64,000 bases of DNA from an uncultured Gemmatimonadales bacterium (GCA_963795085.1 CAWCFX010000003.1:331696-395695); one strand, 5' to 3'; numbered from the stretch's first letter, positions 21,339 to 56,580 are shown. Numbers and translations: made by a program. Notes: generated from the sequence alone by a model not told the origin.

Positions 21339-24287
21339 ATGGCGGTCGCCGCGCGCGCATGCCCTGCCTGTAAGACTCCTTTACCCGAGGAGGCCCAGTT
21401 CTGCCTCCGCTGCGGCCTCGCCACCCCGACCGATCCCGGCGTGCCGCCCCGCACCGGCGCCACCGGCGTGGTCGAGGTCAGCCAGGTGAAGCGGGCCCTG
21501 GCCAGCCGCTACAAGGTGGAGCGGGTACTGGGCGAGGGGGGCATGGCGACGGTCTATCTCGCCCACGACCTCAAGTACCAGCGCAGCGTGGCGGTCAAGG
21601 TGATGCGGCCGGAGCTGGCCTCCACTCTCGGCGCCGACCGGTTTCTCCGCGAGGTCCAGATCGCCGCCCGGCTCACCCACCCCCACATCCTGCCCATGTA
21701 CGAGTCGGGCGAGGCCGAGGGGCTGCTGTACTATGTCATGCCCTACGTGGAGGGCGAGACGCTCAGAGACCGGCTGCGCCGCGAGTCCCAGCTTCCCGTC
21801 GAGGACGCGCTCAAGATCGCCCGGGAGATCTCAGAAGCCCTCGCCTACGCCCACGCCCAGGGCATCATCCACCGCGATATCAAGCCGGCCAACATCCTGC
21901 TGGGCGGCGGCCACGCCATGGTCGCCGACTTCGGCATCGCCCGCGCGGTCACCGCGACCGCCACGGAACCGCTCACCCAGACCGGGCTGGCGGTGGGGAC
22001 GCCGCAGTACATGTCGCCCGAGCAGGCCATGGGCGACCGCGAGGTGGATGCCCGCGCCGACATCTACGCGGTGGGCGCCCTCCTCTACGAGATGATCGCC
22101 GGGGAGCCGCCCTTCACCGGGCCCACCCCCCGCGCGATCGTCACCCGGAGCATGACGGAGGACCCCCGCTCGCTCACCGCCTCCCGCGCGGGTCTGTTCC
22201 CTGACGTAGATCGCGTCGCCCTGAAGGCGCTGGCCAAGAGCCCCGCCGACCGTTACCCGACCGCCACTGCCCTCGCGGCCGCGCTCGACCTGGCGATGGA
22301 AGCTACCCGGAGCGGTGCCCGGCCGGTCGCCGTGGCCAGCGGCCCCGCCCCGCTCCAGGTACTCCTCCTCTTCCTCCTCGCCGGCACCGCGGTGCTGGCC
22401 GTGGCCTACGCCCTGGTGCGGAAGGTCGGCCTGCCCGGATGGATGTTCCTGCTGGCCGTCGCCCTGATGCTGGCCGGGCTTCCTATCATGCTGCTGACCG
22501 CGCGCGCAGAACGTCGCCGGGAAGGAGGCCGGGACGAACCCGGGATCCGCCGACTCCTCACCTGGCGAAATGGGCTGGCAGGCGGCGTCCTCGCCTTTGC
22601 CGCCTGGGGCGTCCTCGCGGCAGCCCTCGTCCTCCAGAGCCCCGCCGTGGCGGGCGCGGCCCCGGAAGGCGCCCGGCTCGCCGTCCTCCCGTTCACCAAT
22701 CGAGGAGCGCCCGAGGATGCCTACTTCGCCGACGGAATCGCGGACGAACTCCGCGGCAAGCTGGCGGGGCTGGGACGCTTCCAGCTCACGGCCCGGACCA
22801 GCTCCGACCAGTACCGGGAGAGCACCAAGTCCCCCCAGGAGATCGGCCGGGAACTGGGCGTGGATTACCTGCTCACCGCCACCGTCCGCTGGGCCAAGGC
22901 GGCCGACGGGACCGGCCGGGTCCAGGTGGTGCCCGAACTGATCGACACCCGGACCGGCGACATCACCTGGCAGCAGTCGTACGATGCCAACCTCACCGAT
23001 GTCTTCCAGGTACAGACCCAGATCGCCAGCCGGGTGGCGGGCGCCCTCGGCGTGGCGCTGGGCAGCCGGGAACAGGTCCAGCTGGCCGAGCGGCCGACCG
23101 ACAACCTGGCGGCCTACGATCTCTACCTCAAAGGGATGGCCACGTCCAGCACGGATCCGGCCAGCCTGCGCCGGGCCATTGCGTTCTTCGAACAGGCCAC
23201 CGCGCTGGATTCCACCTTTGCCGAGGCCTGGACCCAGCTCAGCGGCTCCCTTGGAACCCTGTACACCAACAGCGTCCCCGATCCCCAGGTGGGTCAGCGG
23301 GCGCTGGCGGCCGCCGAGCGTGCCCTGAGACTGGATCCGGATGGATCCCAGGGCCACCGGGCGCTGGCCCGCTATCACATCAGCGTCACCAAGAACCTGG
23401 CCGAAGCGGAGCGCCATCTCAGCCAGGCGCTCAGCCTGGAGCCCAATAATCCCGACTATCTGGCGTTGGCGGGAGCGATTGAGCGGACCTCAGGACGCTA
23501 CGAGGAGGCCCTGTCCCACATGCAGCAGGCATTCCGGCTGGACCCCCGGTCCATCCGGAACGCCATTCGGCTGCAGAACACCTACCTCTGGCTCCGGCGG
23601 TACCCCGAGGCGCTGCAGGCGAGCGAAGCGGCCCTGGCACTGGCACCAGGGGATCTGAGTATCAGCCAGGACAAGGCCATGGTCTACCTCGCCCAGGGGG
23701 ACCTCGCCGGCGCGCGGGAGGTGATTCGGCAGGTCTCTCCCACCGTCGTCATGCCGGACCTGGTCGCCTTCTTCGGCGTGTACTGGGACATGTACTGGGT
23801 CCTGGAGGATCCTCAGCAGGAGTTGCTGCTCCGGCTCACGCCCACGGCGTTCGACAACGACCGGGGTTCATGGGCGACGGTCATGATGCAGCTTCACTGG
23901 CTCCGCGGGGACCGCACCCGGGCCCGGGCCTACGCCGACAGCGCCCTGCGGGAGATCCAGGTCCAGATTCGCGGGGCACCCGACGACGGACAGCGGCATG
24001 TGATCGGCGCGCTGGCACTGGCGTACCTGGGCCGGAAGGCCGAAGCCATCGCCCAGGGACAGAGAGGCATCGCGCTCAGCCCCATCAGCGTGGACCACGT
24101 GAACGGGCCCTATTACCAGCACCTGATGGCGCGGATCTATCTGCGGGTCGGTGAGCCGGAGAAGGCGATCGACATGCTGGAGCCGCTGCTCCGGATGCCG
24201 TACTTTCTGTCGCCGGGGTGGCTCCGGGTGGATCCCACCTTTGCGGAGCTCAAGGGGAATCCGCGGTACGATCGTTTGCTTCGGTAA
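21339..24287 (+). CDS. Ser/Thr protein kinase with N-terminal zinc ribbon, TM region, extracytoplasmic module and TPR domain
   Basis: ORF track 983 aa (TTG at 21336, ATG at 21339). CPACKTPLPEEAQFCLRCG zinc ribbon. Kinase motifs GEGGMATVYLA, VAVKV, HRDIKPANILL, DFGIA, GTPQYMSPEQ. TPR-rich C-terminus. Confidence 0.9.
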   Translation: MAVAARACPACKTPLPEEAQFCLRCGLATPTDPGVPPRTGATGVVEVSQVKRALASRYKVERVLGEGGMATVYLAHDLKYQRSVAVKVMRPELASTLGADRFLREVQIAARLTHPHILPMYESGEAEGLLYYVMPYVEGETLRDRLRRESQLPVEDALKIAREISEALAYAHAQGIIHRDIKPANILLGGGHAMVADFGIARAVTATATEPLTQTGLAVGTPQYMSPEQAMGDREVDARADIYAVGALLYEMIAGEPPFTGPTPRAIVTRSMTEDPRSLTASRAGLFPDVDRVALKALAKSPADRYPTATALAAALDLAMEATRSGARPVAVASGPAPLQVLLLFLLAGTAVLAVAYALVRKVGLPGWMFLLAVALMLAGLPIMLLTARAERRREGGRDEPGIRRLLTWRNGLAGGVLAFAAWGVLAAALVLQSPAVAGAAPEGARLAVLPFTNRGAPEDAYFADGIADELRGKLAGLGRFQLTARTSSDQYRESTKSPQEIGRELGVDYLLTATVRWAKAADGTGRVQVVPELIDTRTGDITWQQSYDANLTDVFQVQTQIASRVAGALGVALGSREQVQLAERPTDNLAAYDLYLKGMATSSTDPASLRRAIAFFEQATALDSTFAEAWTQLSGSLGTLYTNSVPDPQVGQRALAAAERALRLDPDGSQGHRALARYHISVTKNLAEAERHLSQALSLEPNNPDYLALAGAIERTSGRYEEALSHMQQAFRLDPRSIRNAIRLQNTYLWLRRYPEALQASEAALALAPGDLSISQDKAMVYLAQGDLAGAREVIRQVSPTVVMPDLVAFFGVYWDMYWVLEDPQQELLLRLTPTAFDNDRGSWATVMMQLHWLRGDRTRARAYADSALREIQVQIRGAPDDGQRHVIGALALAYLGRKAEAIAQGQRGIALSPISVDHVNGPYYQHLMARIYLRVGEPEKAIDMLEPLLRMPYFLSPGWLRVDPTFAELKGNPRYDRLLR

Positions 24288-28986: not shown

Positions 28987-31329
28987 ATGATCGAGTTACG
29001 CACCCTGGGCTCCCTGGAACTGACCTCGGACGAGGGCGGAGCCTTCAGCGCCGTGCTGGCCCAGCCCCGGCGCATGGCCCTGTTGTGCTATCTCGCCCTG
29101 GCCGTCCCCCGCGGATTCCACCGCCGTGACACCCTGCTGTCCCTCTTCTGGCCGGACGATGACACCGAGCAGGCCCGGCATGCGCTCCGGCAGTCGGTGT
29201 ACTTCCTCCGCCGCGCGCTGGGGCCCACGGCGATCGCCTCCCGGGGCGACGAAGAGCTGGGGCTCTCGCCCGACCGGATCCGGTGTGACGCCTGGGCGTT
29301 CGAGGCGGCGGCCGGCCAGGCGCGCCCGGCCGAGGCGCTGGCCCTCTACCGGGGGGAGCTGCTCACCGGCTTTCACATTTCCGACGCGCCCGATTTCGAG
29401 CGCTGGCTGGACCAGGAGCGGGAGCGCCTGAGACAGATGGCCGGCGAGGCCGCCTGGGCGCTGGCCGGGGAGCGGGAACAGCAGGGCGATGCAGTCGGAG
29501 CAGCGGAGGCGGCCCGCCGGGCGCTCTCCTTCTCTCCCACGGACGAGAACGCGGTGCGCCGCCTGATGCTCCTCATGGAGCGGCTGGGAGACCGGGGAGC
29601 CGCGCTGCGTGCTTACGAGGGCTTCGCCGGGGAACTGGAAACGGAGTTCGAGCTACCGCCCTCGGAGGAGACCCGGGACCTGGTGGCGCGCATCCGCGCC
29701 GGCGCCGGCCGGAGCCCACCGTCCGCTCCCGAGCCCGGAACCGACCATCCGTCCGTTTCTGCGTCCGTGCCCCGGCCGGGTCCCCGGCGGGATGACTCGG
29801 CAGACCGCCAGGTCCCCACTCGTGAGAAGGCAGCCAGAAAGCATCGGAGGCTGGCTCTCCTGGGCGCGGTGGCCTTGCTCCTTGGCGTGGGGTGGGCAAT
29901 GCGCGGGCAGCTGGGGATTCCCCCGGCCACCGGGGAAGCCCTCGGGCCCCCCCGCTCGATCGCGGTCCTGCCGTTCCGGAACCTCCGGGGAGACTCGACC
30001 GGCGACTACTTCAGCGACGGGATCACCGAGGAAATCCTGCATGCCCTGGTGCAGATCCCCGAGTTGCAGGTTGCCGCCAGGACGTCGGTGTTTCAGTTGA
30101 AGGGCCAGACGTTCGATGCCCGGACCGTAGGACGCCGGCTCGGCGTGGCATCGATACTCGAGGGGAGTATCCAGCGGGAGGGGAACGACGTTCGCATAAC
30201 CGCCCGGCTCACGGACACCCGGACGGGGTACCAGATCTGGTCCGCCCAGTTCGACCGGCAACTCTCGGACCTCTTCCGTGTAGAGGACGAGATTTCCCTC
30301 GCACTGGCGGAGCGACTCAAGATTCCCCTGGGTCTGGTCCCGCGCCCCGTGACCGGCGCCGTCCCGATCGAGGCGCACGACCTCTACCTGCGGGGGCTCT
30401 CACTCCTGGCGCTCAGGGGGCCCGCGCTGCAGCAGACGATCGCCTACTTCGAGGGCGCCATCGCACTCGACTCGACCTACGCGGCCGCATGGGCCGGCCT
30501 CGCCGCGGCGCGGGAGCTGCTGCCGGCCTACGGGTTTTCGTCCTACCAGGACGAGTTGCCCCGGGCCGAGCAGGCGGCGCGGCGGGCGATTGCGCTCGAC
30601 AGCATGCTGGGGCCGGCCTACGCGGTGCTGGGCAGTGTGTACCGGGACCTGACGCGATGGGGTGATGCCGAGCGGGCCTATGCCCGCGCGCTCAGGCTCG
30701 CACCCAACGACGCCGAGGCGATCGAACAGTACGGCCAGTTCCTGTTCTGGACCGGCCAGGCGACCGCCGCCATTCCCTGGATGGAACGCGCCCGCACCCT
30801 CGACCCCCTGGCGCCCATTCCCGCGACCACGCTAGGGACCGCTCACCTCTTTCTCCATGATTATGACTCGGCGGCCACGCTGCTGGCCCATGCATCGGAG
30901 CTGGGCCCGACCCTCCATCTGCCCTTGATGTGGCGGATGTGGGCCGAATTGCTCGCACGGCGCTACGACCTCGCGGAACAGGCCGGGAGACGCCTGGCCC
31001 AGGTCAGTGGCGTCGATCCCGACATCTATTCCGGGCTGATCCGGGGCGTCGCGGATTCCGCTGAGCGCCGCCCAGCGCTGGCGCGGCTTGCCCGCATCCC
31101 GATCGACGCTCCCTCGGCGCTGAACAGTGATTTCCGGGCGAACTGGCTGACGCTGCTCGGGGACACGGCGTCCGCGCTGGAGGCGGTGGAGCGGCTGGCC
31201 GCGCACCCGACCCCCATGGGTATTCTCACGCTCTGGAATCCCGCGCTCGACCCCATTCGCGAAAGGCCGCGGTTTCGGGCGGTTCTGCAACGGCTGGGGC
31301 TGCCGTTCCAGTCGTCATTTCGGAGGTGA
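28987..31329 (+). CDS. BTAD/SARP-type transcriptional regulator with TM, extracytoplasmic module and TPR region
   Basis: ORF track 780 aa. RRDTLLSLFWPDDDTEQARHALRQSVYFLRRAL (wHTH). LYRGELLTGFHISDAPDFERWLDQERERL (BTAD). TM LALLGAVALLLGVGWA. SIAVLPFRNLRGDSTGDYFSDGITEEI. TPR-like tail. Paralog of 9031..11931. Confidence 0.85.
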   Translation: MIELRTLGSLELTSDEGGAFSAVLAQPRRMALLCYLALAVPRGFHRRDTLLSLFWPDDDTEQARHALRQSVYFLRRALGPTAIASRGDEELGLSPDRIRCDAWAFEAAAGQARPAEALALYRGELLTGFHISDAPDFERWLDQERERLRQMAGEAAWALAGEREQQGDAVGAAEAARRALSFSPTDENAVRRLMLLMERLGDRGAALRAYEGFAGELETEFELPPSEETRDLVARIRAGAGRSPPSAPEPGTDHPSVSASVPRPGPRRDDSADRQVPTREKAARKHRRLALLGAVALLLGVGWAMRGQLGIPPATGEALGPPRSIAVLPFRNLRGDSTGDYFSDGITEEILHALVQIPELQVAARTSVFQLKGQTFDARTVGRRLGVASILEGSIQREGNDVRITARLTDTRTGYQIWSAQFDRQLSDLFRVEDEISLALAERLKIPLGLVPRPVTGAVPIEAHDLYLRGLSLLALRGPALQQTIAYFEGAIALDSTYAAAWAGLAAARELLPAYGFSSYQDELPRAEQAARRAIALDSMLGPAYAVLGSVYRDLTRWGDAERAYARALRLAPNDAEAIEQYGQFLFWTGQATAAIPWMERARTLDPLAPIPATTLGTAHLFLHDYDSAATLLAHASELGPTLHLPLMWRMWAELLARRYDLAEQAGRRLAQVSGVDPDIYSGLIRGVADSAERRPALARLARIPIDAPSALNSDFRANWLTLLGDTASALEAVERLAAHPTPMGILTLWNPALDPIRERPRFRAVLQRLGLPFQSSFRR

Positions 31330-31579: not shown

Positions 31580-34213
31580 ATGACCGCCCTGCCGCCCGAG
31601 CTCGCCGCCGCCCTCAGTGACCGCTATGCCCTCGAGCGGGTCCTGGGGCGCGGCGGGATGGCCACGGTCTATCTCGCCCGCGACCTGAAACACCGCCGAC
31701 CGGTCGCCATCAAGGTGCTCGAACCCACCCTGGCCGCTATCCTGGGCGGCGACCGGTTCCTCCGCGAAATCGAAACCACCGCCAGCCTCCGCCACCCGCA
31801 CATCCTGCCGCTCTACGATTCGGGCGAGGCGGGCCAGGCCCTCTACTATGTCATGCCCCTGGTCGAGGGCGAGTCGCTCCGGGACCGGCTCCAGCGGGAG
31901 CACCAGCTTCCCCTGGCCGAGTCGCTCCAGATCGCCCGCGAGGTGGCGGACGCGCTGGACTACGCCCACCGCCACGGCATCGTGCACCGCGACATCAAGC
32001 CGGGCAACATCCTCCTCGAATCGGGCCACGCGGTGGTGGCGGACTTCGGCATCGCCCGGGCGATCAATGTCGCCGCCGGCGAACGGCTGACCCAGACCGG
32101 GCTGGGCGTCGGGACGCCGGAGTACATGAGCCCGGAGCAGGTCGCGGGGGGCCAGGACCTCGATGGACGGAGCGATCTCTACAGCCTGGGCTGCGTGTTG
32201 TACGAGATGCTCGCCGGCCGGCCGCCGTTCACCGGCCCGACCGCGGCCAGCATTGTGGTCCAGCAGATGACGGACGCGCCCGGATCCCTGAGCCTGCTCC
32301 GCCCCGCGGCGCCGCCGGCCGTGGTGGCGGTCATTGCCCGGTGCCTGGCCAAGCTCCCGGCCGACCGCTGGCACGACGCGGACGAGTTGCGGACCCAGCT
32401 GGGGGCATTGGCCGGCTCCGGCACGACGCCATCCCCGCCGCCGGTGGCGGTGTCGCCGCCCACCCGCCGGCGAACCGCGATGCTGGCCGGCGTCCTGGCC
32501 CTCGGACTCATCGCCGTGCTGGGCCGCTGGCTGCTGCGCTCCGAGACGCACGATGTCGCCATCGGGCGGCGGGCGCAGGTGACCCACGGGGCGGGACTCG
32601 AGGTCCACCCCGCCCTGTCGCCGAATGGAGACCTGCTGGCCTATATCGCCGGCGATGATTCCCGGCTCTACGTCCGCCAGGTGCAGGGGGGCCGTCCCAT
32701 CCCGATCGCCCCGGAGGTCCCCGGGATACAGGCCTGGCCGAACTGGTCCCCCGACGGCAAGCAGCTGAGCTTCCTGTCGGCTCGGGGCATCGAGGTCGTG
32801 CCGGCGCTGGGCGGGGTTCCCCGGCTGCTGGTGCCGATTCCCCAGGCCGGCCCGCGGGTCACCGTGGGGGTGAACGGTCCCTGGTCCCCCGATGGCCGGG
32901 AAATCGCCTTCATGCGGAGCGACACCCTGTACGCCGTCGCGGTCGCCGGCGGAACGCCTCGCGTGATCGCCCCCGAACGGAGGCTTCACTCCTGCAGCTG
33001 GGCGCCAGGGGGAAGCCGGATTGCCTGTGTCAGCGGGAATTTTGAATCCGTGACCCTGGGACCCTGGCTCGGCAACCTGGGATCCAGCGCGATCCTGGTG
33101 ATCCCCGCGGCGGGGGGTGCGGCCACCCCGCTCATCCAGGACGGACAGGCCAACAGCAGCCCGGCGTGGCTCCCGGATGGCACCCTGCTCTTTCTCTCTA
33201 ACCGGGACGGCGGCCGGGACATCTACGCCGTGCGCCTGGACCGCCAGGGCCGCGCGGCCGCCCCGCCCCGCCGGATCACCACCGGGCTCAATGCGCTCAA
33301 CGTCACGATCTCGGCCAACGGCGCCCGGATCGGCTATGCGGCCTTCACCGAGACCTCCAATATCTGGACGACCCCCGCGTCACCGGCGGCGGCGGTGAGC
33401 CTGGCCGCCGCGACCCAGGTGACCTCCGGGAGCCAGGTCATCGAGTGGCTGGATCTCTCGCCCGATGGACGGTGGGTCGTGTTCGACTCCGATCGGGGCG
33501 GCAACTCCAGTATTTACCGGCTCGCGCTGGACGGTGGGGCCGAGCCGGAAAAGCTCACCAGCGATTCCGTCGACAATTTCTGGCCTTCCTGGTCCCCGAA
33601 CGGGAACGAAATCGCGTTCCATTCCTCCCGTGACGGGCATCGCCAGCTGTACCTGGTTTCGGCGGACGGGGGCGCCCGGCGCCCCGCAGTGGAGACCCAA
33701 AACGACGACCGCACGGCGTCATGGTCGCCTGACGGCCGGAGTCTCCACCTGCTTACGGACTACGGGTCCCCTGGCGCCGAGACCCGGGTCATTCGCCGCC
33801 TGCCGGATGGGACCTGGAGCCAGCCGGAACGGTGGCGCAAACCGCCGTGCATGCCGACCTGGTCGCCCGATGGCGCGCGGCTCGCGTGCGCCGACCTCGA
33901 CGGACGCATCCTGCTGACCAACGCGGCGGGAGACTCCCTGGCCACGCTGGTGTCCGGCGGCCTGGTGCGGGGTATGGGGCAGTACCCGAAATGGTCGTCC
34001 GACAGCCGCACCGTTTACTACCTGGCGGAGGACTCGGTGAGCACGAGTATCAACGCCGTGGCGGTCAGCGGCGGCCCACCCCGGGTGATCCTGCGCTTCG
34101 ATGATCCCGCCCGGCCTTGGCATCGGTACGGGTTCACGGTGTACCGGGACCGGTTCTACTTCACGATCGGCGAGCGGGAGAGCCACATCTGGGTGGGGGA
34201 GCTGGGGGAGTAG
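31580..34213 (+). CDS. Ser/Thr protein kinase with a C-terminal TolB-like PD40 beta-propeller
   Basis: ORF track 877 aa. GRGGMATVYLA, VAIKV, HRDIKPGNILL, DFGIA, GTPEYMSPEQ. One TM. Repeated PD40-type units (HPALSPNGDLLAYI, WPNWSPDGKQLSF, WPSWSPNGNEIAFHSSRDG, ASWSPDGRSL). Confidence 0.9.
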   Translation: MTALPPELAAALSDRYALERVLGRGGMATVYLARDLKHRRPVAIKVLEPTLAAILGGDRFLREIETTASLRHPHILPLYDSGEAGQALYYVMPLVEGESLRDRLQREHQLPLAESLQIAREVADALDYAHRHGIVHRDIKPGNILLESGHAVVADFGIARAINVAAGERLTQTGLGVGTPEYMSPEQVAGGQDLDGRSDLYSLGCVLYEMLAGRPPFTGPTAASIVVQQMTDAPGSLSLLRPAAPPAVVAVIARCLAKLPADRWHDADELRTQLGALAGSGTTPSPPPVAVSPPTRRRTAMLAGVLALGLIAVLGRWLLRSETHDVAIGRRAQVTHGAGLEVHPALSPNGDLLAYIAGDDSRLYVRQVQGGRPIPIAPEVPGIQAWPNWSPDGKQLSFLSARGIEVVPALGGVPRLLVPIPQAGPRVTVGVNGPWSPDGREIAFMRSDTLYAVAVAGGTPRVIAPERRLHSCSWAPGGSRIACVSGNFESVTLGPWLGNLGSSAILVIPAAGGAATPLIQDGQANSSPAWLPDGTLLFLSNRDGGRDIYAVRLDRQGRAAAPPRRITTGLNALNVTISANGARIGYAAFTETSNIWTTPASPAAAVSLAAATQVTSGSQVIEWLDLSPDGRWVVFDSDRGGNSSIYRLALDGGAEPEKLTSDSVDNFWPSWSPNGNEIAFHSSRDGHRQLYLVSADGGARRPAVETQNDDRTASWSPDGRSLHLLTDYGSPGAETRVIRRLPDGTWSQPERWRKPPCMPTWSPDGARLACADLDGRILLTNAAGDSLATLVSGGLVRGMGQYPKWSSDSRTVYYLAEDSVSTSINAVAVSGGPPRVILRFDDPARPWHRYGFTVYRDRFYFTIGERESHIWVGELGE

Positions 34214-47735: not shown

Positions 47736-47921
47736 TGCGCCGAGTCACAGGGTGCCGCACCGGGTGTCCACGCTGCCGTCCGGCAGGTCGAGGGTGCTCC
47801 CCGGGTGTGCGTTCCCGGGTACCGGAACCATCAAGATTGCCTTCCCCTGGCACCCAGGGCGCCTGCCCGGAGGTTCCATCCCCTTGATTCAGCGTGACTT
47901 ACCGTCGGCTTCACCCTTCCC

Positions 47922-48355
47922 TTCCCGTCACATCAACCTGGCATTCCCCTCACTTCAACGTTGGGTTCCCGCGAGTTGAAGGTTGGGTTCCCGTCACCTC
48001 AACGTTGGGTTCCCGTCACTTCAACATCGGGTTCCGGTGGCTTCAACATGCGTTTCGCGCCACGGCGGCGTGGGGTGACGGCCGGCCCGGGGTCAGGGTT
48101 CGCCAAGCCGCGGTCCCCTTCCCATCACCTCGACGGGCCGGTCCCCGGGTCCGGGTTCGGGTTCCCGCCATGTCAATGACAGGTCCCGCCAGCTCGAGGT
48201 CCGGTCCCGCCGGCCGGGGGCTCCTTCCCGCCAGGTCGAGGTATGGTTCCGCCGACCTCGAGGGGATTGAGCGGGGACCAGCGGAGGGGTTCCGGAAGCA
48301 TGCATGGCGGGTTCCCGGAGCATCAAGCTCAGCTTCCCCGGGCTTCAATCCCTGT
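47922..48355. repeat. degenerate tandem array of ~20 units with 22-bp (20-23) phasing; core TTCCCGTCACTTCAACGTTGGG
   Basis: TTCC(C/G) recurs at 47922, 47944, 47966, 47988, 48010, 48032, 48054, (gap), 48099, 48119, 48142, 48162, 48184, 48205, 48225, 48247, (gap), 48290, 48312, 48334. The five central units are nearly identical. The period is not a multiple of 3 and the same motif appears in all three frames of the ORF track, so the array is non-coding. Confidence 0.85.
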
Positions 48356-49042
48356 TGGAGATAGTTACCGGCATGGCTGGACCGTGATGCGGCGGGACCG
48401 GGAGCGACCTTCCGCTCCTCCCGTTCACGGCGTCCCGGTGGATGATCGCGGACACCGCGCGCGGGCTCCCGGAGGTTCGGGACCTGTCACTCCCTGGCCC
48501 GGCGGTGGGTACCGGGAGCGGCAACTCTGCCGGGCCGAAGCTTCCCGCCTTCTGAACGCCTGCCCCCTGTGCCCGTGAAGCACGCAGCGAGGCATGGTGA
48601 CCGGAGGGTGATGCTTGTTGGTAGTGGGCCTGCCGAGACCTGGCCGGGTATTCCATGGCCCCTGCCCCGCTCATTTCTGGGCGGGATGCCGGAACCTCCT
48701 GTCTCCCTTCCCCCGGAACGGGGCGGCCTTCACTCCATGTGCCACTTCTGCCATACATGGTAGCGGGACCCCGTGCCGGGGAATCCTTCCTGCCACGCAC
48801 CCCGGTTTCACCCTCGGCCATCACCAGTTACCGGCATGCGCCATATCGAACGAACCGCACGCGCTCCTGGCACGCGGTCCTGAGATCCGCCGCCACGACG
48901 AGTACGGCCGATGGCGGGCAGCGGGACACGCTGCAATCGTTTCCCGCCCTGCGATCCCCCGGTTACTTTGCGTTACCGGCGTCAAAGCGCCCGGAAATCC
49001 TGCCGGTGATCCGTCCGCCCCTGCACCCGGGAAGAGAATACC

Positions 49043-49489
49043 ATGGTTCACGCGAACACCCGAAACCTGGCCGGCGCCGCCCAATCCGCGCTTCGCATTG
49101 CCGCGGGCCTGGCCTTCTTCAGCCACGGGGCGCAGAAACTGTTCGGCTGGTTTGGCGGCGTGGGACCGGATGGAGGGACGGTGGAGCTCATGAGTCGATA
49201 CGGCGCCGCCGGCCTCATCGAAGCCCTAGGCGGCGCTGCCCTCGTGCTCGGCCTGTTCACCCGCCCCGTCGCGTTGATCGCTTCGGGCGAGATGGCGGTC
49301 GCGTATTTCTGGATGCACTGGGGACGATCCGGCGAGATGTGGTGGTGGGACAACCGAGGGGAGATGGTCCTGCTCTACTCGTTCATCTGGCTCTTCTTCG
49401 CCGCCGCCGGGGCCGGGCCACTCAGTCTCGATGCCTGGCGCGCGTCACGTGGCAACCCCAGCCACCCGGCAGGACCTACCCCGGGGTAA
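49043..49489 (+). CDS. DoxX-family membrane protein
   Basis: ORF track 148 aa. ALRIAAGLAFFSHGAQKLFGWFGG...GLIEALGGAALVLGLFTRPVALI is the typical DoxX signature. Confidence 0.85.
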   Translation: MVHANTRNLAGAAQSALRIAAGLAFFSHGAQKLFGWFGGVGPDGGTVELMSRYGAAGLIEALGGAALVLGLFTRPVALIASGEMAVAYFWMHWGRSGEMWWWDNRGEMVLLYSFIWLFFAAAGAGPLSLDAWRASRGNPSHPAGPTPG

Positions 49490-49625
49490 CCGGCTCGACC
49501 GGCAGGTTGCCCAGCTGACCCGCTGCCCGCACTCGGTCAGGCGCGGGACAAGGGCGTAGCCGGGGGCCGGGATTCTTCGCCAGCGCCTCGCTGCTCCCCT
49601 TAGGTGGCTTCGGGCAGGCGAGGTG

Positions 49626-51005
49626 TCAATAGTCAGGGGTTCCCTTCAACGTCAGCCCTCTGTCGGCTATGTAGCGGTCAATAGTTTCGGACTCGATTTC
49701 TCGATGAAAATATTCCTGCGGTTGCTCAGACACATTGATGACATCGACTATTCGATTGTCCGCATAGCGCACTTCCAACAGTAACTGAATATCCTCATGG
49801 TCTCCATAGCGGGTTAACTGTCCACTGCGCCGGTCAATAAACCATCCGGCGCCCCATGTTCCCAGGCCTCTGATGCCGACGAGGAAGTAGTCACGAAGTG
49901 GCTCTTCATCCTGGGACTCATGGTGGCTCCCATCGGTCATCCTGCCGAGTATCGCAAAGTCCTTGGCGGCAATTCGTCCGAACTCAGGCTGCCATTCACC
50001 CCCGGTATTCATGGAACTGCGCTGCCGCATGAGATACGAGCTCAGCGGCGACTGGACCATGATCTCCTTGCCGGCCAGGCTCCACACCAGGTTGGCCGGT
50101 CTCCCCTCATTCATGTCGAAGCGGAAACGGAGGCGTTCCCGGTAGTGCTCCAGCCGCTGCAATGCATGCTTGATCCTCGGAACACACACCCACACCCGAT
50201 TACTATTGCTCAATTCGACCGGGGGATCGTTAGCCGCGTGGACATGCCAGTCCTTGAAACCGATCAAGCTCAGAGTCTTGGTGACCTTATCTACTGCCTT
50301 GTAGTCCTCAAAATAGACTTGGGTGGCTAACCGCCTTAACCAGAAACTGGGGTCGGCCCCGGAATGATCCCTGGACCGTTCGACCGGCGGATACAATATG
50401 TCAACGCGCGGACCGGTGCGTTGACCCGTGCTGCCCAGTTGCCAGAACCGCCTGAGATTCTCGATTTTGGGTATTGCATATCGCTTCTTGATGGCCACCT
50501 CATAGAGATCATGGGTGAATCGCTCCTTGAAGTCCTTGTCGGACCGGAACGAATGGAACACGATCCCTTCCGCCTTCAGGCGCTTCTGAAATGCCCGGAG
50601 ATCTCGCTCCTGTCGGCCTCGGTCATTGTTAGCGGGCAGCTCTTTGAAGTATGCGAGGACGCCGAACGATGGGTCACTTCGATGCTTGGCTAATGCCCGC
50701 TCTACTTCGCGCTCGACATTCCCTTTTTTGTGGCCGGGCTCTTTACTGCCGTACCGCTTACCCAGGATGAGGACAAAGAAATGGCATTCATCAATGCGCT
50801 TGTTGATCTCGTCCTGAAAGGTTACCTCGCCCGCCGGCATTGCAGGCGGCCGGTTCTCCCACTTCCATGGCAGTATGTGCAGTTGGAGCGATTGGCTCAG
50901 CCGTTTGCTGGTAGTCTCAATTACTTCCTCGGCGATCTGCCGCTCTTTGGAAACATCGCCAGGCGATGAAATGAACGCTAAGTAAGACTGATAAGCCTTG
51001 GCCAT
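49626..51005 (-). CDS. DUF4062-like (TIR/deoxyribosyltransferase-like) N-terminal domain protein with an uncharacterised ~360-aa C-terminal region
   Basis: ORF track 459 aa. N-terminus YLAFISSPGDVSKERQIAEEVI...EINKRIDECHFFVLILGKRYGS fits the DUF4062 pattern (FISS..D...ER...ecD.fv.i.g.rYGs). No Walker A motif. Local GC is ~55% versus ~68-70% in the flanks. Confidence 0.7.
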   Translation of the reverse strand: MAKAYQSYLAFISSPGDVSKERQIAEEVIETTSKRLSQSLQLHILPWKWENRPPAMPAGEVTFQDEINKRIDECHFFVLILGKRYGSKEPGHKKGNVEREVERALAKHRSDPSFGVLAYFKELPANNDRGRQERDLRAFQKRLKAEGIVFHSFRSDKDFKERFTHDLYEVAIKKRYAIPKIENLRRFWQLGSTGQRTGPRVDILYPPVERSRDHSGADPSFWLRRLATQVYFEDYKAVDKVTKTLSLIGFKDWHVHAANDPPVELSNSNRVWVCVPRIKHALQRLEHYRERLRFRFDMNEGRPANLVWSLAGKEIMVQSPLSSYLMRQRSSMNTGGEWQPEFGRIAAKDFAILGRMTDGSHHESQDEEPLRDYFLVGIRGLGTWGAGWFIDRRSGQLTRYGDHEDIQLLLEVRYADNRIVDVINVSEQPQEYFHREIESETIDRYIADRGLTLKGTPDY

Positions 51006-51296
51006 CGCCCCCTCCAGACGTCAGGTCGTTGGTCTTCCACTGCATAGCCTGCACTCAAAAATGAATTGCGCAAGGGGGGGGCCGACGTGGATCAATGGGC
51101 GTTGCGGAGTCCGGGGGAAAACTGGCGCCGAAACGGGGTGGCCCTTCCCCGCCGGGTGCGCGGCGCGGTCGCGGGGCGGCGGGGCAGGACAACGGACTGA
51201 GCCAATGATGGCTACGCCCCTTCGGGAACAGAGTCTTCAGGGCTGCGCCTGGTGCAAGATGGATCTACTTGACGAGGGGAAGGACGCGGTGACACA

Positions 51297-52355
51297 TCAG
51301 GGGTGCCAGGACGTCCGCCGGATCCTGACGGTCACCCCGTAGCTCGAACTGGCGCCACACCCGACCTGGCTCTTGACCGAGTAGAACGTAGCCGGCAGCA
51401 GCCACTCACCGGTCGCGATCGTGTTGCGATGCAGTTCGTTGCCGTACACCCGATACGCCGCACCCGCTGTCGGGCCGTCACACCCATGCCAGGAATGGTC
51501 GTTCATCCTGCCGGTAATATCGAGGACGTCAAACGGCTGAATCCGGGGAAATGCATCGAGAGCGGCGTCATAGAAGGCATCGTCCAGATCACCATAGTTC
51601 GATACCAGTTCGAATCCGTAGTTCCACACCCCGAAGGCGAACAGCAGCGTGCTCGTCTGGTCCGGAGGCATGCTGAACGGGCCGACGAAGAGCTGGTGGT
51701 TCTCCACCGTGTGGGTTCCGTCCCGATAGTCCCCCAATCGCTTCGTGCCCGAGCACTCGGTGAGACTGCCGCCGCGGTGGCAGCGCTCAGGGTGGAAATA
51801 TTGCCCGTAGACATTTCCCATGAGGCTCAGCCAGGCGGTATCGGTGGTTCTCGCCCGGGTGTGGTTGACACGAATGTTGTCGACGGACACCGTATACTGT
51901 GCATAGGTCGGGATCGTGATGGTCGCGCTGGCCAGGGTTTCGGCACAGGAGAAGTCCTGGCCGGTGCCGGCGCGGCGACACACGATGATCTCCATGGGCC
52001 TGCCCGCCAGGCCGGCATAGGGGTGAAGAATGTGGCTCCGCTCGGCCGGCGCCTGGATGTCATCAAATACCGAACAGCCCCGGCCGTCCGCCCCGCACAC
52101 CATCACGGATTCGACCGGGCGAGCTCCGCCGACACCAGGCGACACCCGAAGGGTGAAAGGCAGCTCGACCAGCCTGCCCTCCAGCACCGGGATGCCCGTT
52201 GTGGGTTGGGCGAGCTCCAGCTCATACCTCGCCGTCAGCCGTAAAGCCGCTTGGGCGCCAATGCCCTGCCCCGGGAGGACGGCAGGACATGCGACCAGTC
52301 CCACCACGAGCCAGAGTGCATGGCGACCAATCCCGGCATCAGAGCACTCGAACAT
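51297..52355 (-). CDS. secreted hypothetical protein (Cys-rich, no family recognised)
   Basis: ORF track 352 aa. N-terminal hydrophobic segment HALWLVVGLVACPAVLPGQG. Intact here, fragmented in the mirrored copy. Confidence 0.6.
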   Translation of the reverse strand: MFECSDAGIGRHALWLVVGLVACPAVLPGQGIGAQAALRLTARYELELAQPTTGIPVLEGRLVELPFTLRVSPGVGGARPVESVMVCGADGRGCSVFDDIQAPAERSHILHPYAGLAGRPMEIIVCRRAGTGQDFSCAETLASATITIPTYAQYTVSVDNIRVNHTRARTTDTAWLSLMGNVYGQYFHPERCHRGGSLTECSGTKRLGDYRDGTHTVENHQLFVGPFSMPPDQTSTLLFAFGVWNYGFELVSNYGDLDDAFYDAALDAFPRIQPFDVLDITGRMNDHSWHGCDGPTAGAAYRVYGNELHRNTIATGEWLLPATFYSVKSQVGCGASSSYGVTVRIRRTSWHP

Positions 52356-52503
52356 GGGAATCCCTTTTCGGAAGCGCGTGAACCTTGGGCCTCTTCCTCG
52401 ACCAGGTCGAGAATGGCCTGGTCGCGACGGACGCTATGGCCCTCGAAGGGCGCCGAGAAGCCCTCCCGGCTTGCCTGCTACCCGCACCACGATCCCCCTC
52501 GGC

Positions 52504-53133
52504 CTATGTGATTGACGCCTGGACGGCTGCGAAGAAAGCCACAGGATCAGCGCGAAAACAGGCCCGAAGCATGGTCGGGACTTGCGGGTCAGCCCGGACC
52601 AGAACGCCGGGAGTGTGGCTGTCCCGGTGGGTCACCAGAAGCTCGACAAACAGCCCCATTATTTCGCGATCCTGAACGACCGGGTCGGCTATCTGCTGAA
52701 CCTGGCCGTTCTTCGTATGGAGTCCAATGATTCGAGCACGACTCCTGGCATAAATGCCGGCGAGATAGCGCCCCAGAACGGCATTGTCGCACGGAACCTG
52801 GGTCGCGATGAGGGCCAGGTAGGCCAGAAAGTCAGCTCCATGGGCCTGGGCACACGCACCATACAACTCCTTGGCATCTCGGTTGTGCCGCTGCCCATGC
52901 TGGAGTCGCTCTAGCACTTCACCTTGATGGTGGGCCATCGCATCAAGCGCGCGTAGCGGTGATTCCTTTCTCGCAAGGCCGTTGCCCCATTGCCATTCTA
53001 GGTGTTGCATGGAGGGTCCACAGGCGAGAGGAACGGGATCGGTGGTGTGCCGCCAATAGGGCCGCGTCTGTGCGCTGATGGAAGGCGCAGCACACAAGAC
53101 CCCGATCAATACGAGACACAGGTTTCTTCGCAT
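52504..53133 (-). CDS. secreted hypothetical protein (mostly helical, no family recognised)
   Basis: ORF track 209 aa. Signal peptide MRRNLCLVLIGVLCAAPSISAQ. Confidence 0.6.
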   Translation of the reverse strand: MRRNLCLVLIGVLCAAPSISAQTRPYWRHTTDPVPLACGPSMQHLEWQWGNGLARKESPLRALDAMAHHQGEVLERLQHGQRHNRDAKELYGACAQAHGADFLAYLALIATQVPCDNAVLGRYLAGIYARSRARIIGLHTKNGQVQQIADPVVQDREIMGLFVELLVTHRDSHTPGVLVRADPQVPTMLRACFRADPVAFFAAVQASIT

Positions 53134-53412
53134 CGAGCCCCTCCGCGTTCAGGTCCGCTTTCGTCCCCCCCTTAGCAATAGCGTGCCGAAAAGAACGAGA
53201 ATTCGCAAGGGATCTCGGCACCGCCGGCCACAAAGGCCCCCGCAATCCGCACCTGAAGCTCTTTCACCGAGCTGTCAGGGCTTTACCGGGCTGCCTGCTG
53301 GGACGTTCGGAAGCTACCGTGCACGTGGCACTTACACCGCTTCGCACCCCGGCCCCTTGCCGAACCCTGTTTTCGGCTGCACGCTGGAGGTTCACCCTTT
53401 CGGAGCACGGGA

Positions 53413-54329
53413 ATGCGCGCCGCGGCCATTGTTGTCACTGCAATGCTGGTGGGAGCCCCGTAGCGCCTTACGCGGTGGCTCAGGACACCCTTCGCTACAA
53501 CCACTTCGAGAACTGCCCCAAGTCCGATCCACCGGCCAGGACCTGCCATGTCGTCGTTACCCGGCGGATTCAGCCGGGGCATCACCTGACGGTGCGAATC
53601 GAGGCCACGGATCCCGCCACCTTCGAAGGGCGGGTTACCAACCTTGCGCTTAGCACCGCGACGAAGCCGGACGACCCTCTACGAATCAAGAACACGGCCC
53701 CGACCGGCTCCATGGATCTCGATATAACCCACGACGTCCGCTATGGCGGATACATGGTGACGATCGACCGGCAAAGCGGCAAGCCGGAACACGATACACT
53801 CCGACCGGCCATCCTGGTCATCCAGGTGGATGCCGAGGACAAGCCCTGGTCCTTCAGCGGGGGGATCTCGTTCACCACGATTCGCAACCAGCCCTTCGTG
53901 GTTCGCAAAGCCGACGACGACACGCTTCGGGTCCAGGAGGACCCGGATCGCCGGGACGACGCCTCAGTGGGATTTGGCACTTTCTTCACGATCGACCTTC
54001 CCAGGATAGACCTGGGACCGCTTGGGGCGGCCTCCAAGCTCGGGCTGGCCATCGGCATTGGGCTGGAGACTTCGGGGGAGACCCACTACTACGCCGGGCT
54101 GGCCTACCAGATCCATCGCGGGGTCTTTCTCAACTCCGGATACGTGCTCGGCAGGGTCAATGCGCTGCCGAGCGGACTTCGTCTCGATGACGCGGTCACC
54201 GATCCCAACGCGCTGTCCAACCTGCAGCGTCGCAACCAGAGCGGGTTCTTTATCGGTGTGTCCGCCGTGTTCCTGGGAGGGGGGCAATCGACATACTCCA
54301 AGCCGTTCGCGGGCACCCAGGAGAAGTAG
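53413..54329 (+). CDS. hypothetical secreted protein with a beta-rich, possibly barrel-like C-terminus; signal peptide displaced by a 1-nt frameshift
   Basis: The body is ORF 53319..54329. A 16-codon ORF at 53413-53463 (MRAAAIVVTAMLVGAP*) is a good signal peptide. It would join ...VAPYAVAQ|DTLRY of the main frame if one base were added in the CCCC run at 53456-53459. Confidence 0.55.
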
Positions 54330-54645
54330 TCGGCTCGAATTGCTAAACCCACTTCAACTCCGGAAGTAATGATGCCAAGGGGTTGGTACGTTAGCGCCCC
54401 CGGAACCGGAGGGGCCATGACCGGGCTTCCGCGCACAGGTTCTCACAGCTCCGCGACAGTGTGAATACGCTGAAGCGTGACCTCCCTGCACAGGCCCAGA
54501 ATGCAATCCGCTGCAGGATATCCGGATGACTGGACGGGTGACCTGGGTGATGAAGGTAGCGCAGTGGTACAATAGGCAAGGCGGCGGCTGGCGGAGGACC
54601 ATTCGGCCGCGCATATTGATCGCTCCCTCGCAACCCTTCTACGCC

Positions 54646-56580
54646 ATGCGCTCACGTCAGCCAAAGCTGATTCGGAGGCAATGTCTCCTTGGCCTGCTTA
54701 TCGCCCTGATGACCGGGTGTGGTGGAGACAGCGCTGGTCCTGATCCGGTCGACCCCACCTTGCCCGCAAAGATCACGATTCTGCCGGTAGCAAGCACCAA
54801 GATATTCATCGGGCTCACTCTCCAGCTTCAGGCGGTGGTCACCGACGGCAACGGAGATACGCTGGCCAGCGCCCCGGTTACCTGGTCCAGTGACGGACCC
54901 GACAATGCTTCGATAAGCAGCCAGGGTCTGGTCACGGGTATCCAGCATGGCACGGTGATTATCACAGCCACGTCGGGCGCTTTGAGCGTCACCCACACGC
55001 TCCATGTCATCGAGCTGGCCACCTACATCTATACCCCCGTTGATACCACGCTTGATCCTAACCAGGTGGTGCAGTACACGATCACTGGTCGCGACATCCA
55101 GGGCGTCCAGCATGGCGACCTTCCTTTATTCTGGAGCTCAGCCCAAGGCGCACTGGCCACGGTAACCCAGACCGGCACCGTGACGGCCCAGGAATCCGAT
55201 GGCGGGAATGTCCAGATCACCTTTACCATTGGCAGCCTGTTCGGACGGCTAAACCTCGTCATAGCACCTGCCCCTGTCGCCACGGTGACCGTCTCCACGG
55301 GCACCGGCTGGGTTGGTGAAGTCATCGCGCTGACGTATCAATTGTTGAGTTTCAACGGCGTTGTCCTGACGAACCGGCCGGTGACCTGGAGTTCGTCGGA
55401 CCTTCTCACCGCTACGGTTCAGCCGAACGGCCAGGTGACCGGACTTAAAGCTGGATCTGCTACGATCACCGTGACCAGCGGCATGGCCAGCGGTGGGAGC
55501 AGTTTTGTCGTCAAGCCGTTGCCGTCGTTCCAGCATCTGACGACAGGTGGCATCATTTGCGGGCTCTCCTTCCAGGGTGAGCTCTTCTGCTGGACCGAAG
55601 GCGTAACCGCTTTTCCCGCCCCAATCGCCGCCGGCTTCCAATTCACCGAAGTCGGGACCAGCGGACACATGTGCGGGCTCGCCTCGGGCGTGGCGTACTG
55701 CTGGGGCGCGAATGGCGCCGGCCAACTGGGTGACGGATCGACCACAGACCGTACCACACCGACGCTCGTGAGCGGTGGGCTGACGTTCGCTCATCTGGCG
55801 GTTGGTAACCTGTACACCTGCGGTGTTACAATCGGGGGCACGGCCTACTGCTGGGGCGCCAATACAAACGGTGAGCTTGGCAACGGGACCACCCAACCCA
55901 GCGCGGTACCAGTAGAGGTGTCGGGTGGACATAGCTTCAGCCAGATCTCCGCTGGAAGAATCGGCACGGCGAGCACCTGCGGCATTACTTCTCTCCAGAT
56001 AGCCTGGTGTTGGGGGGCAAACAATGACGGTCAGCTCGGCACCGGCGATTCTCTGCCTTCGACGACACCCAGGCAGGTGATCGGAGGCGTGACCTTCCAG
56101 AGTATCTCGGTCAGTAATTTCCAGACCTGCGGTATATCGACCTCGCAGGTCGCGTATTGCTGGGGCCCCAATGTCTACGGCGGACTTGGTGATGGCACGC
56201 TTGTCAGTACAGCGGCTCCCCACCCCGTGCTGGGCGGCAATTACTCGCATGTCGTCGCCGGATATCTATACAGTTGTGGACTCGCTACGGGGGGCGGAGG
56301 AAACCTGAAATGCTGGGGATGGAACGAGTCCTATCAACTTGGGGATGGAACCCAATCTCAGCGGCCGACGCCGGTGACGATTGGTAGTCTCGGCTTCACC
56401 GAGTTGAACACAGCAGCACGCGGTGGCTGCGGACTGACCTCAACTGGTCATGTACCAATCCAACCAGTTGGGGGGTTGCATCCACAGCCACCGCGTGCTG
56501 CTGTGTTCAACTCGGTGAAGCTCGAGACTACCAATCGTCACCAGCATCAGCCGCTGAATTGGGTTCCATCCCCAACTTGA
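54646..56580 (+). CDS. lipoprotein with three Big_2-type Ig domains and an RCC1-repeat beta-propeller; 3' end replaced by the palindrome junction
   Basis: Internal ATG at 54646 (MRSRQPKLIRRQCLLGLLIALMTGCGG lipobox). Big_2-like ITILPV...TWSSDGPDNASISSQGLVTGIQHGTVIITA, three times. RCC1-like YCWGANGAGQLGDGST, YCWGANTNGELGNGTT, WCWGANNDGQLGTGDS, YCWGPNVYGGLGDGT, KCWGWNESYQLGDGT. After ...GGCGLTSTGH the ORF reads through the inverted-repeat centre. Confidence 0.8.
   Translation: MRSRQPKLIRRQCLLGLLIALMTGCGGDSAGPDPVDPTLPAKITILPVASTKIFIGLTLQLQAVVTDGNGDTLASAPVTWSSDGPDNASISSQGLVTGIQHGTVIITATSGALSVTHTLHVIELATYIYTPVDTTLDPNQVVQYTITGRDIQGVQHGDLPLFWSSAQGALATVTQTGTVTAQESDGGNVQITFTIGSLFGRLNLVIAPAPVATVTVSTGTGWVGEVIALTYQLLSFNGVVLTNRPVTWSSSDLLTATVQPNGQVTGLKAGSATITVTSGMASGGSSFVVKPLPSFQHLTTGGIICGLSFQGELFCWTEGVTAFPAPIAAGFQFTEVGTSGHMCGLASGVAYCWGANGAGQLGDGSTTDRTTPTLVSGGLTFAHLAVGNLYTCGVTIGGTAYCWGANTNGELGNGTTQPSAVPVEVSGGHSFSQISAGRIGTASTCGITSLQIAWCWGANNDGQLGTGDSLPSTTPRQVIGGVTFQSISVSNFQTCGISTSQVAYCWGPNVYGGLGDGTLVSTAAPHPVLGGNYSHVVAGYLYSCGLATGGGGNLKCWGWNESYQLGDGTQSQRPTPVTIGSLGFTELNTAARGGCGLTSTGHVPIQPVGGLHPQPPRAAVFNSVKLETTNRHQHQPLNWVPSPT

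Follow-up and report, generated by a model that had tools for sequence, protein, structure and literature searches.

A 22-bp-phased, degenerate direct-repeat array in a non-coding spacer of an uncultured Gemmatimonadota chromosome, possibly kept as a protein-binding site

In the chromosome of an uncultured soil member of the Gemmatimonadota, a degenerate unit of about 22 bp is repeated head to tail some twenty times in the spacer that follows a gene for a CarH/LitR-type regulator, which raises the question of what such an array does among genes of an ordinary kind, or whether it does anything. A preliminary description, made from the sequence alone, had pointed to plasmid or phage iterons, partition centromeres and arrays of sites for a regulator; of these, an array of multiple protein-binding sites is still the best functional interpretation. 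The window analysed here is the whole stretch of 64,000 nucleotides in which all positions are counted, and is part of a 396-kb Gemmatimonadota contig (396,436 nt) on which the array is flanked by ordinary chromosomal genes. The genome has a G+C content of 68%, and the named homologues of the gene on the left of the array come from Gemmatimonadota MAGs. The parts of the locus are listed in Table 1.

Table 1. Features of the array and its surroundings (positions in the 64,000-nt window).
Feature	Position	Strand	Remarks
CarH/LitR-type regulator (MerR HTH + B12-binding domain)	46522..47490	+	Pfam; left neighbour
REP cluster	47556..47740	+	two copies of GCAGGCTT(C/T)AGCCTGTCT; last REPs before the array
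Perfect hairpin, 13-bp stem	47627..47653		within the REP cluster (47556..47740)
Left fringe	47812..47921	+	loose TTCC(C/A) heads at 47,812, 47,842, 47,874 and 47,917; periodicity z = 2.6, not significant
Left sub-array	47922..48053	+	six exact 22-bp units, consensus TTCCCGTCACTTCAACGTTGGG; four near-identical
Decayed slots (n = 3)	48054..48118	+	65 nt; G+C-rich; inverted repeats CCACG-N4-CGTGG and TGAC-N12-GTCA
Right sub-array	48119..48355	+	eleven slots of 21-22 nt, eight recognisable, e.g. TTCCCATCACCTCGACGGGCCG, GTCCCGCCAGCTCGAGGTCCG, TTCCCGGAGCATCAAGCTCAGC
Remaining non-coding spacer to DoxX gene	48356..49042	.	isolated unit-like fragments at 48,410 and 48,506-48,563
DoxX-family membrane protein	49043..49489	+	Pfam PF07681, E = 2e-14; right neighbour and first gene of the lower-GC island, 688 nt from the array

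Parsed slot by slot from its unit heads, the region from 47,922 to 48,355 resolves into about 20 degenerate head-to-tail slots of 21-22 nt each, as had been claimed for units headed by TTCC(C/G); about 13 of the 20 are recognisable, and four or five are fully decayed (48,076, 48,098, 48,141, 48,268 and, in part, 48,204). The claimed phasing of about 22 bp was confirmed by the repeat-finder check that had been proposed for it, TRF reporting 47,922-48,047 as a repeat of period 22 (5.7 copies, 76% matches, score 133) and 48,182-48,263 as a repeat of period 21 (3.9 copies, score 69), and by base autocorrelation of 47,800-48,360, which peaks at a lag of 22 with 50% identity (z = 11.2 against dinucleotide shuffles) and has harmonics at lags of 44 and 66. 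At lag 22 the core (47,900-48,060) has an identity of 0.71 (z = 11.8), and the right part (48,100-48,360) gives z = 5.4. The looser TTCCC units described further to the left at a spacing of 30 nt stood up only in part: the four heads are present (Table 1), but even the best z for their periodicity falls short of significance. The consensus TTCCCGTCACTTCAACGTTGGG has three matches with up to three mismatches in the 64-kb window, all of them within the array (none expected), and the pattern TTCCC-N6-TCRAS has seven exact matches in the 64 kb, all seven within the array and on the plus strand (0.73 expected). Dispersed copies of the unit were not found elsewhere in the 64 kb, and within this window the array is not one more copy of a REP family, the possibility against which it was to be checked.

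In a public soil-metagenome run, two independent contigs of 151 nt span 48,007-48,289 and differ from the array by 2 and 9 substitutions with its length unchanged, a strain-level comparison of length that applies to this interval only and at thin coverage; because the two contigs carry nothing but substitutions, the array is real DNA and not a product of assembly. A substitution carried by a second strain (48,227 C>G) falls within a TTCCC head, suggesting that individual sites are not strongly constrained. Further contigs were not recruited from the soil metagenome at a likeness of at least 80%. As an observation, the array is real and statistically solid.

Each recognisable unit comprises a block A (TTCCCG, positions 1-6), a block B (TC(A/G)A(C/G)G, positions 12-17) at a distance of one helical turn from block A, and then a free 6-nt tail. 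Across the 16 non-central slots the consensus is matched at 78% in block A, 52% in block B and 37% (approximately the compositional background) at the remaining positions, the value for block A being partly circular because the heads set the register, and that for block B being free of this effect. Permutation of match positions within units never reproduced the unevenness of the blocks (p < 1e-4), the test being confounded by the common descent of the units. T12, C13 and A15 are kept across every independent lineage of units (TCAAC, TCGAC, TCAAT, TCGAG and TCAAG), whereas the tails are scrambled and near saturation. Block B starts at position 12 in all recognisable units, and the only changes of unit length are single-base losses, six or seven in total and all in the tail, that give rise to the 21-nt units. 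The register across decayed slots is 65 nt versus 66 expected in one place and 43 nt versus 44 expected in another; it thus survives fully decayed stretches, and spacing is better preserved than sequence. The orientation of the units is uniform with the exception of the inverted core (GTTGAAG) of unit 47,966, and, as the preliminary description had proposed, a phasing of 21-22 bp sets the sites on a single face of the DNA.

The same description had noted central units that were almost identical and contained an 8-bp palindrome. Four units are indeed near-identical, but the palindrome CAACGTTG is exact in two only (47,956 and 48,000) and is not a feature of the family. The array has 10 palindromes whose arms are 4 bp or longer, versus 4.7 +/- 2.2 expected (p ~0.03), with two of the 10 being copies of the same unit; the idea of a palindrome in every unit was abandoned, the enrichment being weak and the palindromes not conserved across units. 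The segment 47,816-47,851 matches the final two units (48,308-48,343) at 75% identity, which suggests that old units stand at both edges of the array and younger, homogenised ones in its centre. Such a pattern, homogeneous in the centre and degenerate at the edges, points to growth of the array by tandem duplication.

The spacer between the stop codon of carH (47,490) and the start of the DoxX gene (49,043) comprises 1,552 nt without coding signal. The frame bias in third-position GC (GC3) is absent from about 47,500 to 48,950 and resumes at about 49,000, the flanking genes having a GC3 of 0.8-0.9, and the ORFs of the spacer, including one of 156 aa that spans the array, have no match in Pfam. 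On these grounds, and because the period cannot be divided by 3, a coding reading was rejected, which bears out the earlier judgement that the array is non-coding. It was also correctly said not to be a CRISPR: the units abut head to tail with spacers absent, and cas families were not detected among the ORFs screened by Pfam and PADLOC across 1-56.4 kb. Promoter-like and terminator-like sites were not found, no sigma-70-like or sigma-54-like promoter being present in 47,300-49,200, and there is no tRNA in the 64-kb window.

On its left, the array adjoins an operon of genes for an OMP-beta-barrel protein, a DUF378 protein and CarH that is conserved in the closest relative (CarH 66% identical) and in two sister MAGs (L011-L013), in which the gene directly after carH is an epimerase/DUF2867 gene, itself followed by genes for ferritin and a kinase. 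Synteny with the relatives covers only 45,617-47,460 and ends at the carH stop codon. That the spacer might be a pseudogene remnant of the epimerase/DUF2867 gene was rejected, tblastn of the L011 proteins having found nothing in 47,491-49,042. The carH loci of ten relatives (L005-L013) contain no array, no unit motif and no long spacer after carH; with CarH proteins 63-66% identical, even the closest relatives are too distant for a phylogenetic footprint of the array. Self-BLAST locates the REP family of the cluster to the left of the array also at 39.3, 43.8 and 45.1-45.3 kb; REP-like repeats of other kinds occur at 19-21, 28 and 34-36 kb, and none of either lies to the right of 47,740, the cluster being taken as the limit of host-type sequence. 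Because the last REP and the end of synteny both lie to its left, the array belongs to the island side of the break in synteny, and from 49 kb onwards the GC content to its right is 0.56-0.63. Its earlier placement between a REP cluster and a lower-GC island is right in that both are present, but the island is real only to about 56.4 kb.

Beyond that point, the window folds back on itself. The segment 48,669-56,433 is repeated as its reverse complement at 64,000-56,481, with a centre near 56,457; the mirror arms are 91% identical, with 182 gap openings versus 278 mismatches, and deletion runs number 125 in the second arm versus 57 in the first. All genes of the first arm are intact and its DUF4062 protein was found exactly in another sample, whereas the second arm is riddled with frameshifts. 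A profile dominated by indels is not that of evolutionary divergence, and the right half of the island (56.5-64 kb) is most likely an unpolished long-read foldback chimera, from the symmetry of which the array would be expected to recur in mirror image immediately beyond the end of the window. For users of this MAG the mirror artefact (about 7.5 kb) is what matters more in practice; half of the apparent island, and all of its "pseudogenes", are not real sequence. The trustworthy genes of the island encode the DoxX protein, a DUF4062/TIR-like protein (with a weak PADLOC match to PDC-S60), three proteins without a family and a Big2-RCC1 protein, and include none for replication, partition, conjugation or recombination.

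Searches for similar arrays reached well beyond the window. BLAST against 72,556 plasmids and 50,697 phages found nothing similar, a pattern scan of IMG/VR for the array found nothing, and the proteins of the island have no relatives in viral contigs. In 185,579 species genomes, a collection that does not include the source genome, a degenerate pattern of two units gave four matches, which is approximately the chance level. The matches in Micropruina are true 22-bp intergenic arrays, composed of GGTTC 11-mers in ordinary chromosomal contexts, and there is no evidence that they are related to the Gemmatimonadota array. An iterative PWM scan also produced matches at 40.7-41.7 kb, which were discarded as a drift onto 144-bp coding repeats (FG-GAP-like) by chance resemblance. 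The sequence family of the array is new to every collection searched; its kind, a phased direct-repeat array or a minisatellite, is known.

The explanation tentatively preferred, although it falls somewhat short of probable, is that an array born of duplication has been kept as a same-face landing pad for a direct-repeat-binding protein of the winged-helix type, with a regulatory or architectural role. A 22-bp seed may have been duplicated in tandem repeatedly, by slippage or unequal recombination, in foreign or non-coding DNA at the synteny breakpoint, and the result may since have been kept, imperfectly, as a phased set of sites for a single sequence-specific DNA-binding protein of the kind that reads direct repeats. 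Such a protein would contact each unit at two blocks one helical turn apart, TTCCCG and then, from position 12, TC(A/G)A(C/G)G. With a repeat of 21-22 bp, equal to two turns of the helix, a maximum of about 13-15 protein units could sit in a row on one side of the DNA, where they might polymerise cooperatively to form a landing pad or nucleoprotein filament. The role of the array would likely be regulatory or architectural, on behalf of the adjacent island or as a titration site, rather than one in the initiation of replication or in partition.

This geometry matches that read by winged-helix proteins which bind direct repeats head to tail, such as regulators of the OmpR/PhoB/SARP type or the two-domain Rep proteins of plasmids. 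SARP/OmpR-type proteins bind direct repeats of a heptamer at 11-bp intervals on one face of the DNA, in some cases in 22-nt boxes made up of two heptamers, and with TCGAGXX as the classical heptamer (PMC5930380, PMC6510168, PMC10972967), and iteron Rep proteins have two winged-helix domains per repeat (PMC4980987). The window encodes two large proteins with BTAD and TPR domains (9,031-11,931 and 28,987-31,329), which have sub-threshold N-terminal matches to Trans_reg_C (E = 0.007 and 0.0002) and near which two Ser/Thr kinases are encoded; direct-repeat binders of this type are therefore probably present in the genome. Nothing was found in the window to link the BTAD-TPR proteins to the array, the nearest candidate regulator gene being 17 kb away.

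That the array has been under constraint as a set of protein-binding sites is suggested by the block-specific conservation, the fixed spacing of blocks A and B, the register maintained through decay, the shared orientation of the units, the confinement of all seven exact motif matches in the 64 kb to the array, and the persistence of the array in 1,552 nt of non-coding DNA; the want of support for RNA-level readings (see below) is likewise counted in favour of DNA binding. Several observations weigh against it. No cognate gene is adjacent to the array and no promoter was recognised near it; four or five slots have decayed fully, and a homogeneous centre with degenerate edges is what neutral slippage would be expected to produce; the nearest relatives have no array; the approximately 20 sites far exceed the two or three heptamers of known SARP operators; and blocks A and B are not one and the same heptamer. 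The array with its two-block anatomy, strict orientation, uniqueness and non-coding state, and its want of replication or partition hallmarks, stand as observations; binding by a protein, the identity of that protein and the effect of its binding are inferences. A bolder version, which must be considered unlikely, would have the array be a new chromosomal nucleoprotein scaffold of the Gemmatimonadota, in which about 13-15 two-block sites are coated by a winged-helix protein (for example, one of the abundant, kinase-paired BTAD-TPR regulators with a weak winged-helix match) to form a boundary, silencing or titration element for the horizontally acquired island, with no role in replication or partition and no adjacent cognate gene.

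Nearly as likely as binding by a protein is a functionless minisatellite: a 22-bp unit amplified by slippage or unequal crossover in junk DNA at the island junction, and now decaying from the edges inwards, with blocks A and B as residual ancestry. The array does have the head-to-tail units, homogeneous centre and degenerate edges by which a minisatellite is recognised, and a neutral origin would agree with the near-identity of the central units beside degenerate peripheral ones, the four or five unrecognisable slots and the strain variant within a TTCCC head. It would agree also with the absence of any associated gene, promoter, terminator or RNA signal, with the lack of the array in all relatives examined and of a homologue in any collection, and with the occurrence of intergenic 22-bp arrays in ordinary contexts in unrelated high-GC genomes (Micropruina). 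Less easily reconciled with neutrality are the tails, which are near saturation, yet stand beside a T12, C13 and A15 that are invariant across lineages, and the constant spacing of the blocks in a register held through decayed slots. Neutral DNA as diverged as this would be expected to carry many more indels than six or seven single-base losses and, in a bacterium, to have been deleted.

It is improbable that the array is an iteron-type origin, a copy-control locus or the partition centromere of an integrated plasmid-like element, the identity that the preliminary description had raised as a question. Some parC loci have two repeat clusters flanking a core, as the two sub-arrays here flank a core of 65 nt; the array is on the island side of the last REP; and the far end of the island, where rep or par genes could lie, is masked by the assembly artefact. 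Direct repeats of 22 bp with two blocks one turn apart are also the anatomy of iterons, in which WH1 and WH2 of the Rep protein contact successive grooves, but of the features of an iteron-plasmid origin (iterons, a winged-helix Rep, DnaA boxes and a DUE) only the repeats are present, being direct, in one orientation and within the range of 17-22 bp (PMC4980987). The proposed search for nearby rep, parB or initiator genes was negative: among the ORFs screened across 1-56.4 kb, which took in all ORFs up to 6 kb to the left and up to 8 kb to the right of the array, there are no rep, par or integrase genes, and Pfam and PADLOC identified no initiator, ParA, ParB, ParR, ParM, TubZ, relaxase or integrase. 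An A+T-rich unwinding element is absent from 47,491-49,042, where the lowest GC content of any 40 nt is 0.50 (inside the array itself), against a first percentile of 0.45 for the whole window. The DnaA box TTWTNCACA has no match in the 64 kb, and cumulative GC skew, proposed as a test for an origin, falls steadily through 44-57 kb with no switch or inflection at 48 kb. The location of the array is not that of a partition centromere, since its flanks are ordinary chromosomal genes and similarity to plasmids, phages or viral contigs is lacking, and its approximately 20 units are several times the usual number of iterons. Taken against these results, an iteron or centromere identity is unsupported.

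No better, and likewise improbable, is the possibility that the array marks the end of a mobile island, its units serving as end-binding or arm-type sites of a recombinase or transposase that would be encoded at the far end of the island. Tn7/Mu-type ends and attP arms contain multiple sites in the form of direct repeats of about 20 bp, and the array, the left fringe of which begins 72 nt past the last host REP, is situated exactly at the end of synteny with the relatives, with a GC content of 0.56-0.63 to its right. Against such an end, the 7.4 kb of real island sequence contain no integrase or transposase, the window has no tRNA, a terminal inverted repeat was not detected, and twenty sites over 430 bp are far more than the three to seven sites of known ends.

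An element acting as RNA is more doubtful still. It could be a minus-strand sponge of the CsrB/RsmZ kind that presents GGGAA (with GGA), or a plus-strand array of UUCCC in a C-rich sRNA or 3'-UTR; sponge RNAs have many evenly spaced short motifs comparable to the approximately 18 that are evenly spaced in about 450 nt here, and the plus strand runs on from carH in the same direction. Neither strand, however, shows an excess of folding (z = -0.5 and -1.1 against shuffles), Rfam has no match at gathering thresholds or at E <= 5, promoter-like or terminator-like sites were not found, and the context of the motif does not fit the CsrA consensus. On these results a structured RNA was rejected.

Least credible of all is that the array serves the adjacent CarH-type regulator as operator or decoy, a reading that would draw on the proximity of carH and on the resemblance of one 11-mer per unit to nAnnTnnACAn (perfect only in unit 48,010), because the CarH operator is evidently elsewhere, as three 11-bp direct repeats of the TGTTCA type at 45,532-45,579 that lie upstream of the operon in overlap with a TTGACT -35 box and are conserved in L011-L013, while the CarH double-repeat pattern has no match in the array with up to two mismatches, the TGT/ACA core is not conserved among the units, and relatives have the same operon without the array. 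A sigma-54 enhancer array was rejected, matches to TGGCAC-N5-TTGCW being at or below chance and none suitably placed.

What the array signifies depends on which of the two leading explanations holds. If a protein coats it, the array would be a rare case of a direct-repeat landing pad, long and phased, on a chromosome rather than a plasmid, and would offer a first handle on DNA-protein recognition in the Gemmatimonadota, a phylum in which, to our knowledge, experimental genetics is almost lacking. As a neutral minisatellite it would be mainly a candidate marker for strain typing, and would show 22-bp phasing alone to be no indicator of an origin or centromere.

Among known systems, the iterons of plasmids such as R6K (gamma ori), pPS10, F and RK2 are similar in being head-to-tail repeats of about 22 bp in one orientation, with two conserved parts about one turn apart, as would suit a reader with two winged helices, and all sites on one face of the DNA. 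The array differs from them in lacking a rep gene, a DUE, DnaA boxes and a plasmid setting, in its approximately 20 units versus the three to nine of iterons, and in being more degenerate and G+C-rich throughout. The type II and Ib centromeres (R1, pSK41 and pB171 parC) also consist of helically phased direct repeats, of 10-20 bp and sometimes in two clusters around a core, on which a protein filament nucleates, but these are located immediately upstream of parMR or parAB on plasmids, genes and a context that the array does not have.

SARP and OmpR/PhoB operators are comparable in their direct repeats phased at 11 or 22 bp, with short conserved blocks and free spacers, and block B of the right sub-array, TCGAG(G), recalls the SARP heptamer TCGAGXX, a coincidence of five bases only. 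These operators have two or three repeats (rarely as many as about 12) abutting a -35 box, in contrast to some 20 units with no recognisable promoter, 688 nt from the nearest gene start, and the two blocks of the array are unlike each other; membership of the class of SARP operators therefore fails on copy number, promoter proximity and the identity of the two blocks. Bacterial intergenic minisatellites and VNTRs are alike in having tandem non-coding units of 10-100 bp, a homogenised centre, degenerate edges and a lineage-specific distribution. Typical VNTRs have few, recent and highly similar units, whereas the array is long and old, its tails near saturation, its conservation block-specific and its register preserved.

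Within the array of degenerate 22-bp direct repeats, a second strain, represented in a public soil metagenome, carries substitutions at 48,039, 48,053, 48,227, 48,243 and 48,256-48,257. The last of these, a CC>GG change, hints at conversion between array units, because it makes the unit starting at 48,247 read like its neighbour at 48,225 (AGGTCGAGG). An iterative motif scan seeded with the array also picked up the 144-bp repeats of the FG-GAP-repeat gene, a misleading match to a coding repeat. Clean 22-bp tandem arrays were matched in two loci of a Micropruina sp. MAG, L002 and L003, but no evidence was found that they are related to the array of the window. Their building blocks are direct repeats of 11-12 nt of the GGTTC(A/C) type; in L003, copies in inverted orientation come next. 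Both arrays occupy ordinary intergenic positions: the one in L003 is upstream of an MFS transporter gene, the one in L002 beside an IS630-type transposase gene. The repeats may be similar to the units of the actinobacterial PhoP 'PHO box'.

A probable operator of the CarH/LitR-type regulator encoded to the left of the array is proposed from its sequence: a TTGACT -35-like box precedes the direct repeats GGGCAATACC, TGTTCATTTAC and TGTTCACAATG, in that order, and the core GGGCAATACCTGTTCAT is kept in three relatives' loci with the conserved operon (L011-L013), where CarH is only 66% identical. REP copies at 39,286-39,592 directly adjoin the Y1 transposase gene and belong to one family with the cluster that adjoins the array (47,556-47,740). 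The transposase gene and its adjoining REPs look like a RAYT/REPIN arrangement, which could account for the REPs dispersed over the left 47 kb.

Features of the window and of the Micropruina loci
Feature	Position	Strand	Remarks
Candidate CarH/LitR operator	45,532-45,579		upstream of OMP-DUF378-carH operon; three tandem 11-bp direct repeats
IS200-like Y1 transposase	38,721-39,221	-	PF01797, E = 5e-22
Seven copies of 144-bp repeat	40,700-41,697		77% identity; within minus-strand FG-GAP-repeat gene
DUF4062 protein	49,626-51,005	-	weak TIR_2 match
Two large regulators	9,031-11,931; 28,987-31,329	both +	weak N-terminal OmpR-type winged-helix match, BTAD and TPR domains
Kinase-TPR paralogue, and Ser/Thr kinase with PD40 repeats	21,336-24,287; 31,580-34,213	both +	
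Micropruina sp. MAG arrays	L002 2,267-2,392; L003 5,087-5,386		clean 22-bp (and 36-bp) tandem arrays

The right end of the window is a giant inverted duplication (48,669-56,433 versus 64,000-56,481) centred at about 56,457, its loop nearly absent. The arms are 91% identical, with 278 mismatches versus 182 gap openings; deletions concentrate in the second arm, the genes of which are frameshifted throughout, and those of the first are intact. The likeliest cause is not biology but a foldback chimera of long reads in the assembly, and the apparent pseudogenes at 56.5-64 kb are to be disregarded. GC reaches its lowest value in the window (0.56) in the stretch with the DUF4062 gene of the island. 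The product of this gene matches PDC-S60, a candidate defence family, at the N-terminus (PADLOC, E = 7e-20), and an identical protein is encoded on a short contig from a different run, ERR12037361.

Three paralogous genes of the PF00144 serine beta-lactamase/PBP family occur within 17 kb (3,056-4,141, 15,265-16,899 and 19,355-20,626, all on the minus strand).

The Ser/Thr kinase with PD40 repeats is encoded directly 3' of one of the two BTAD-TPR regulators, with the kinase-TPR paralogue close by. The domain content of both regulators (weak winged-helix match, BTAD, TPR) is a SARP/AfsR-like architecture, and the pairing of regulator with kinase is reminiscent of AfsR/AfsK.
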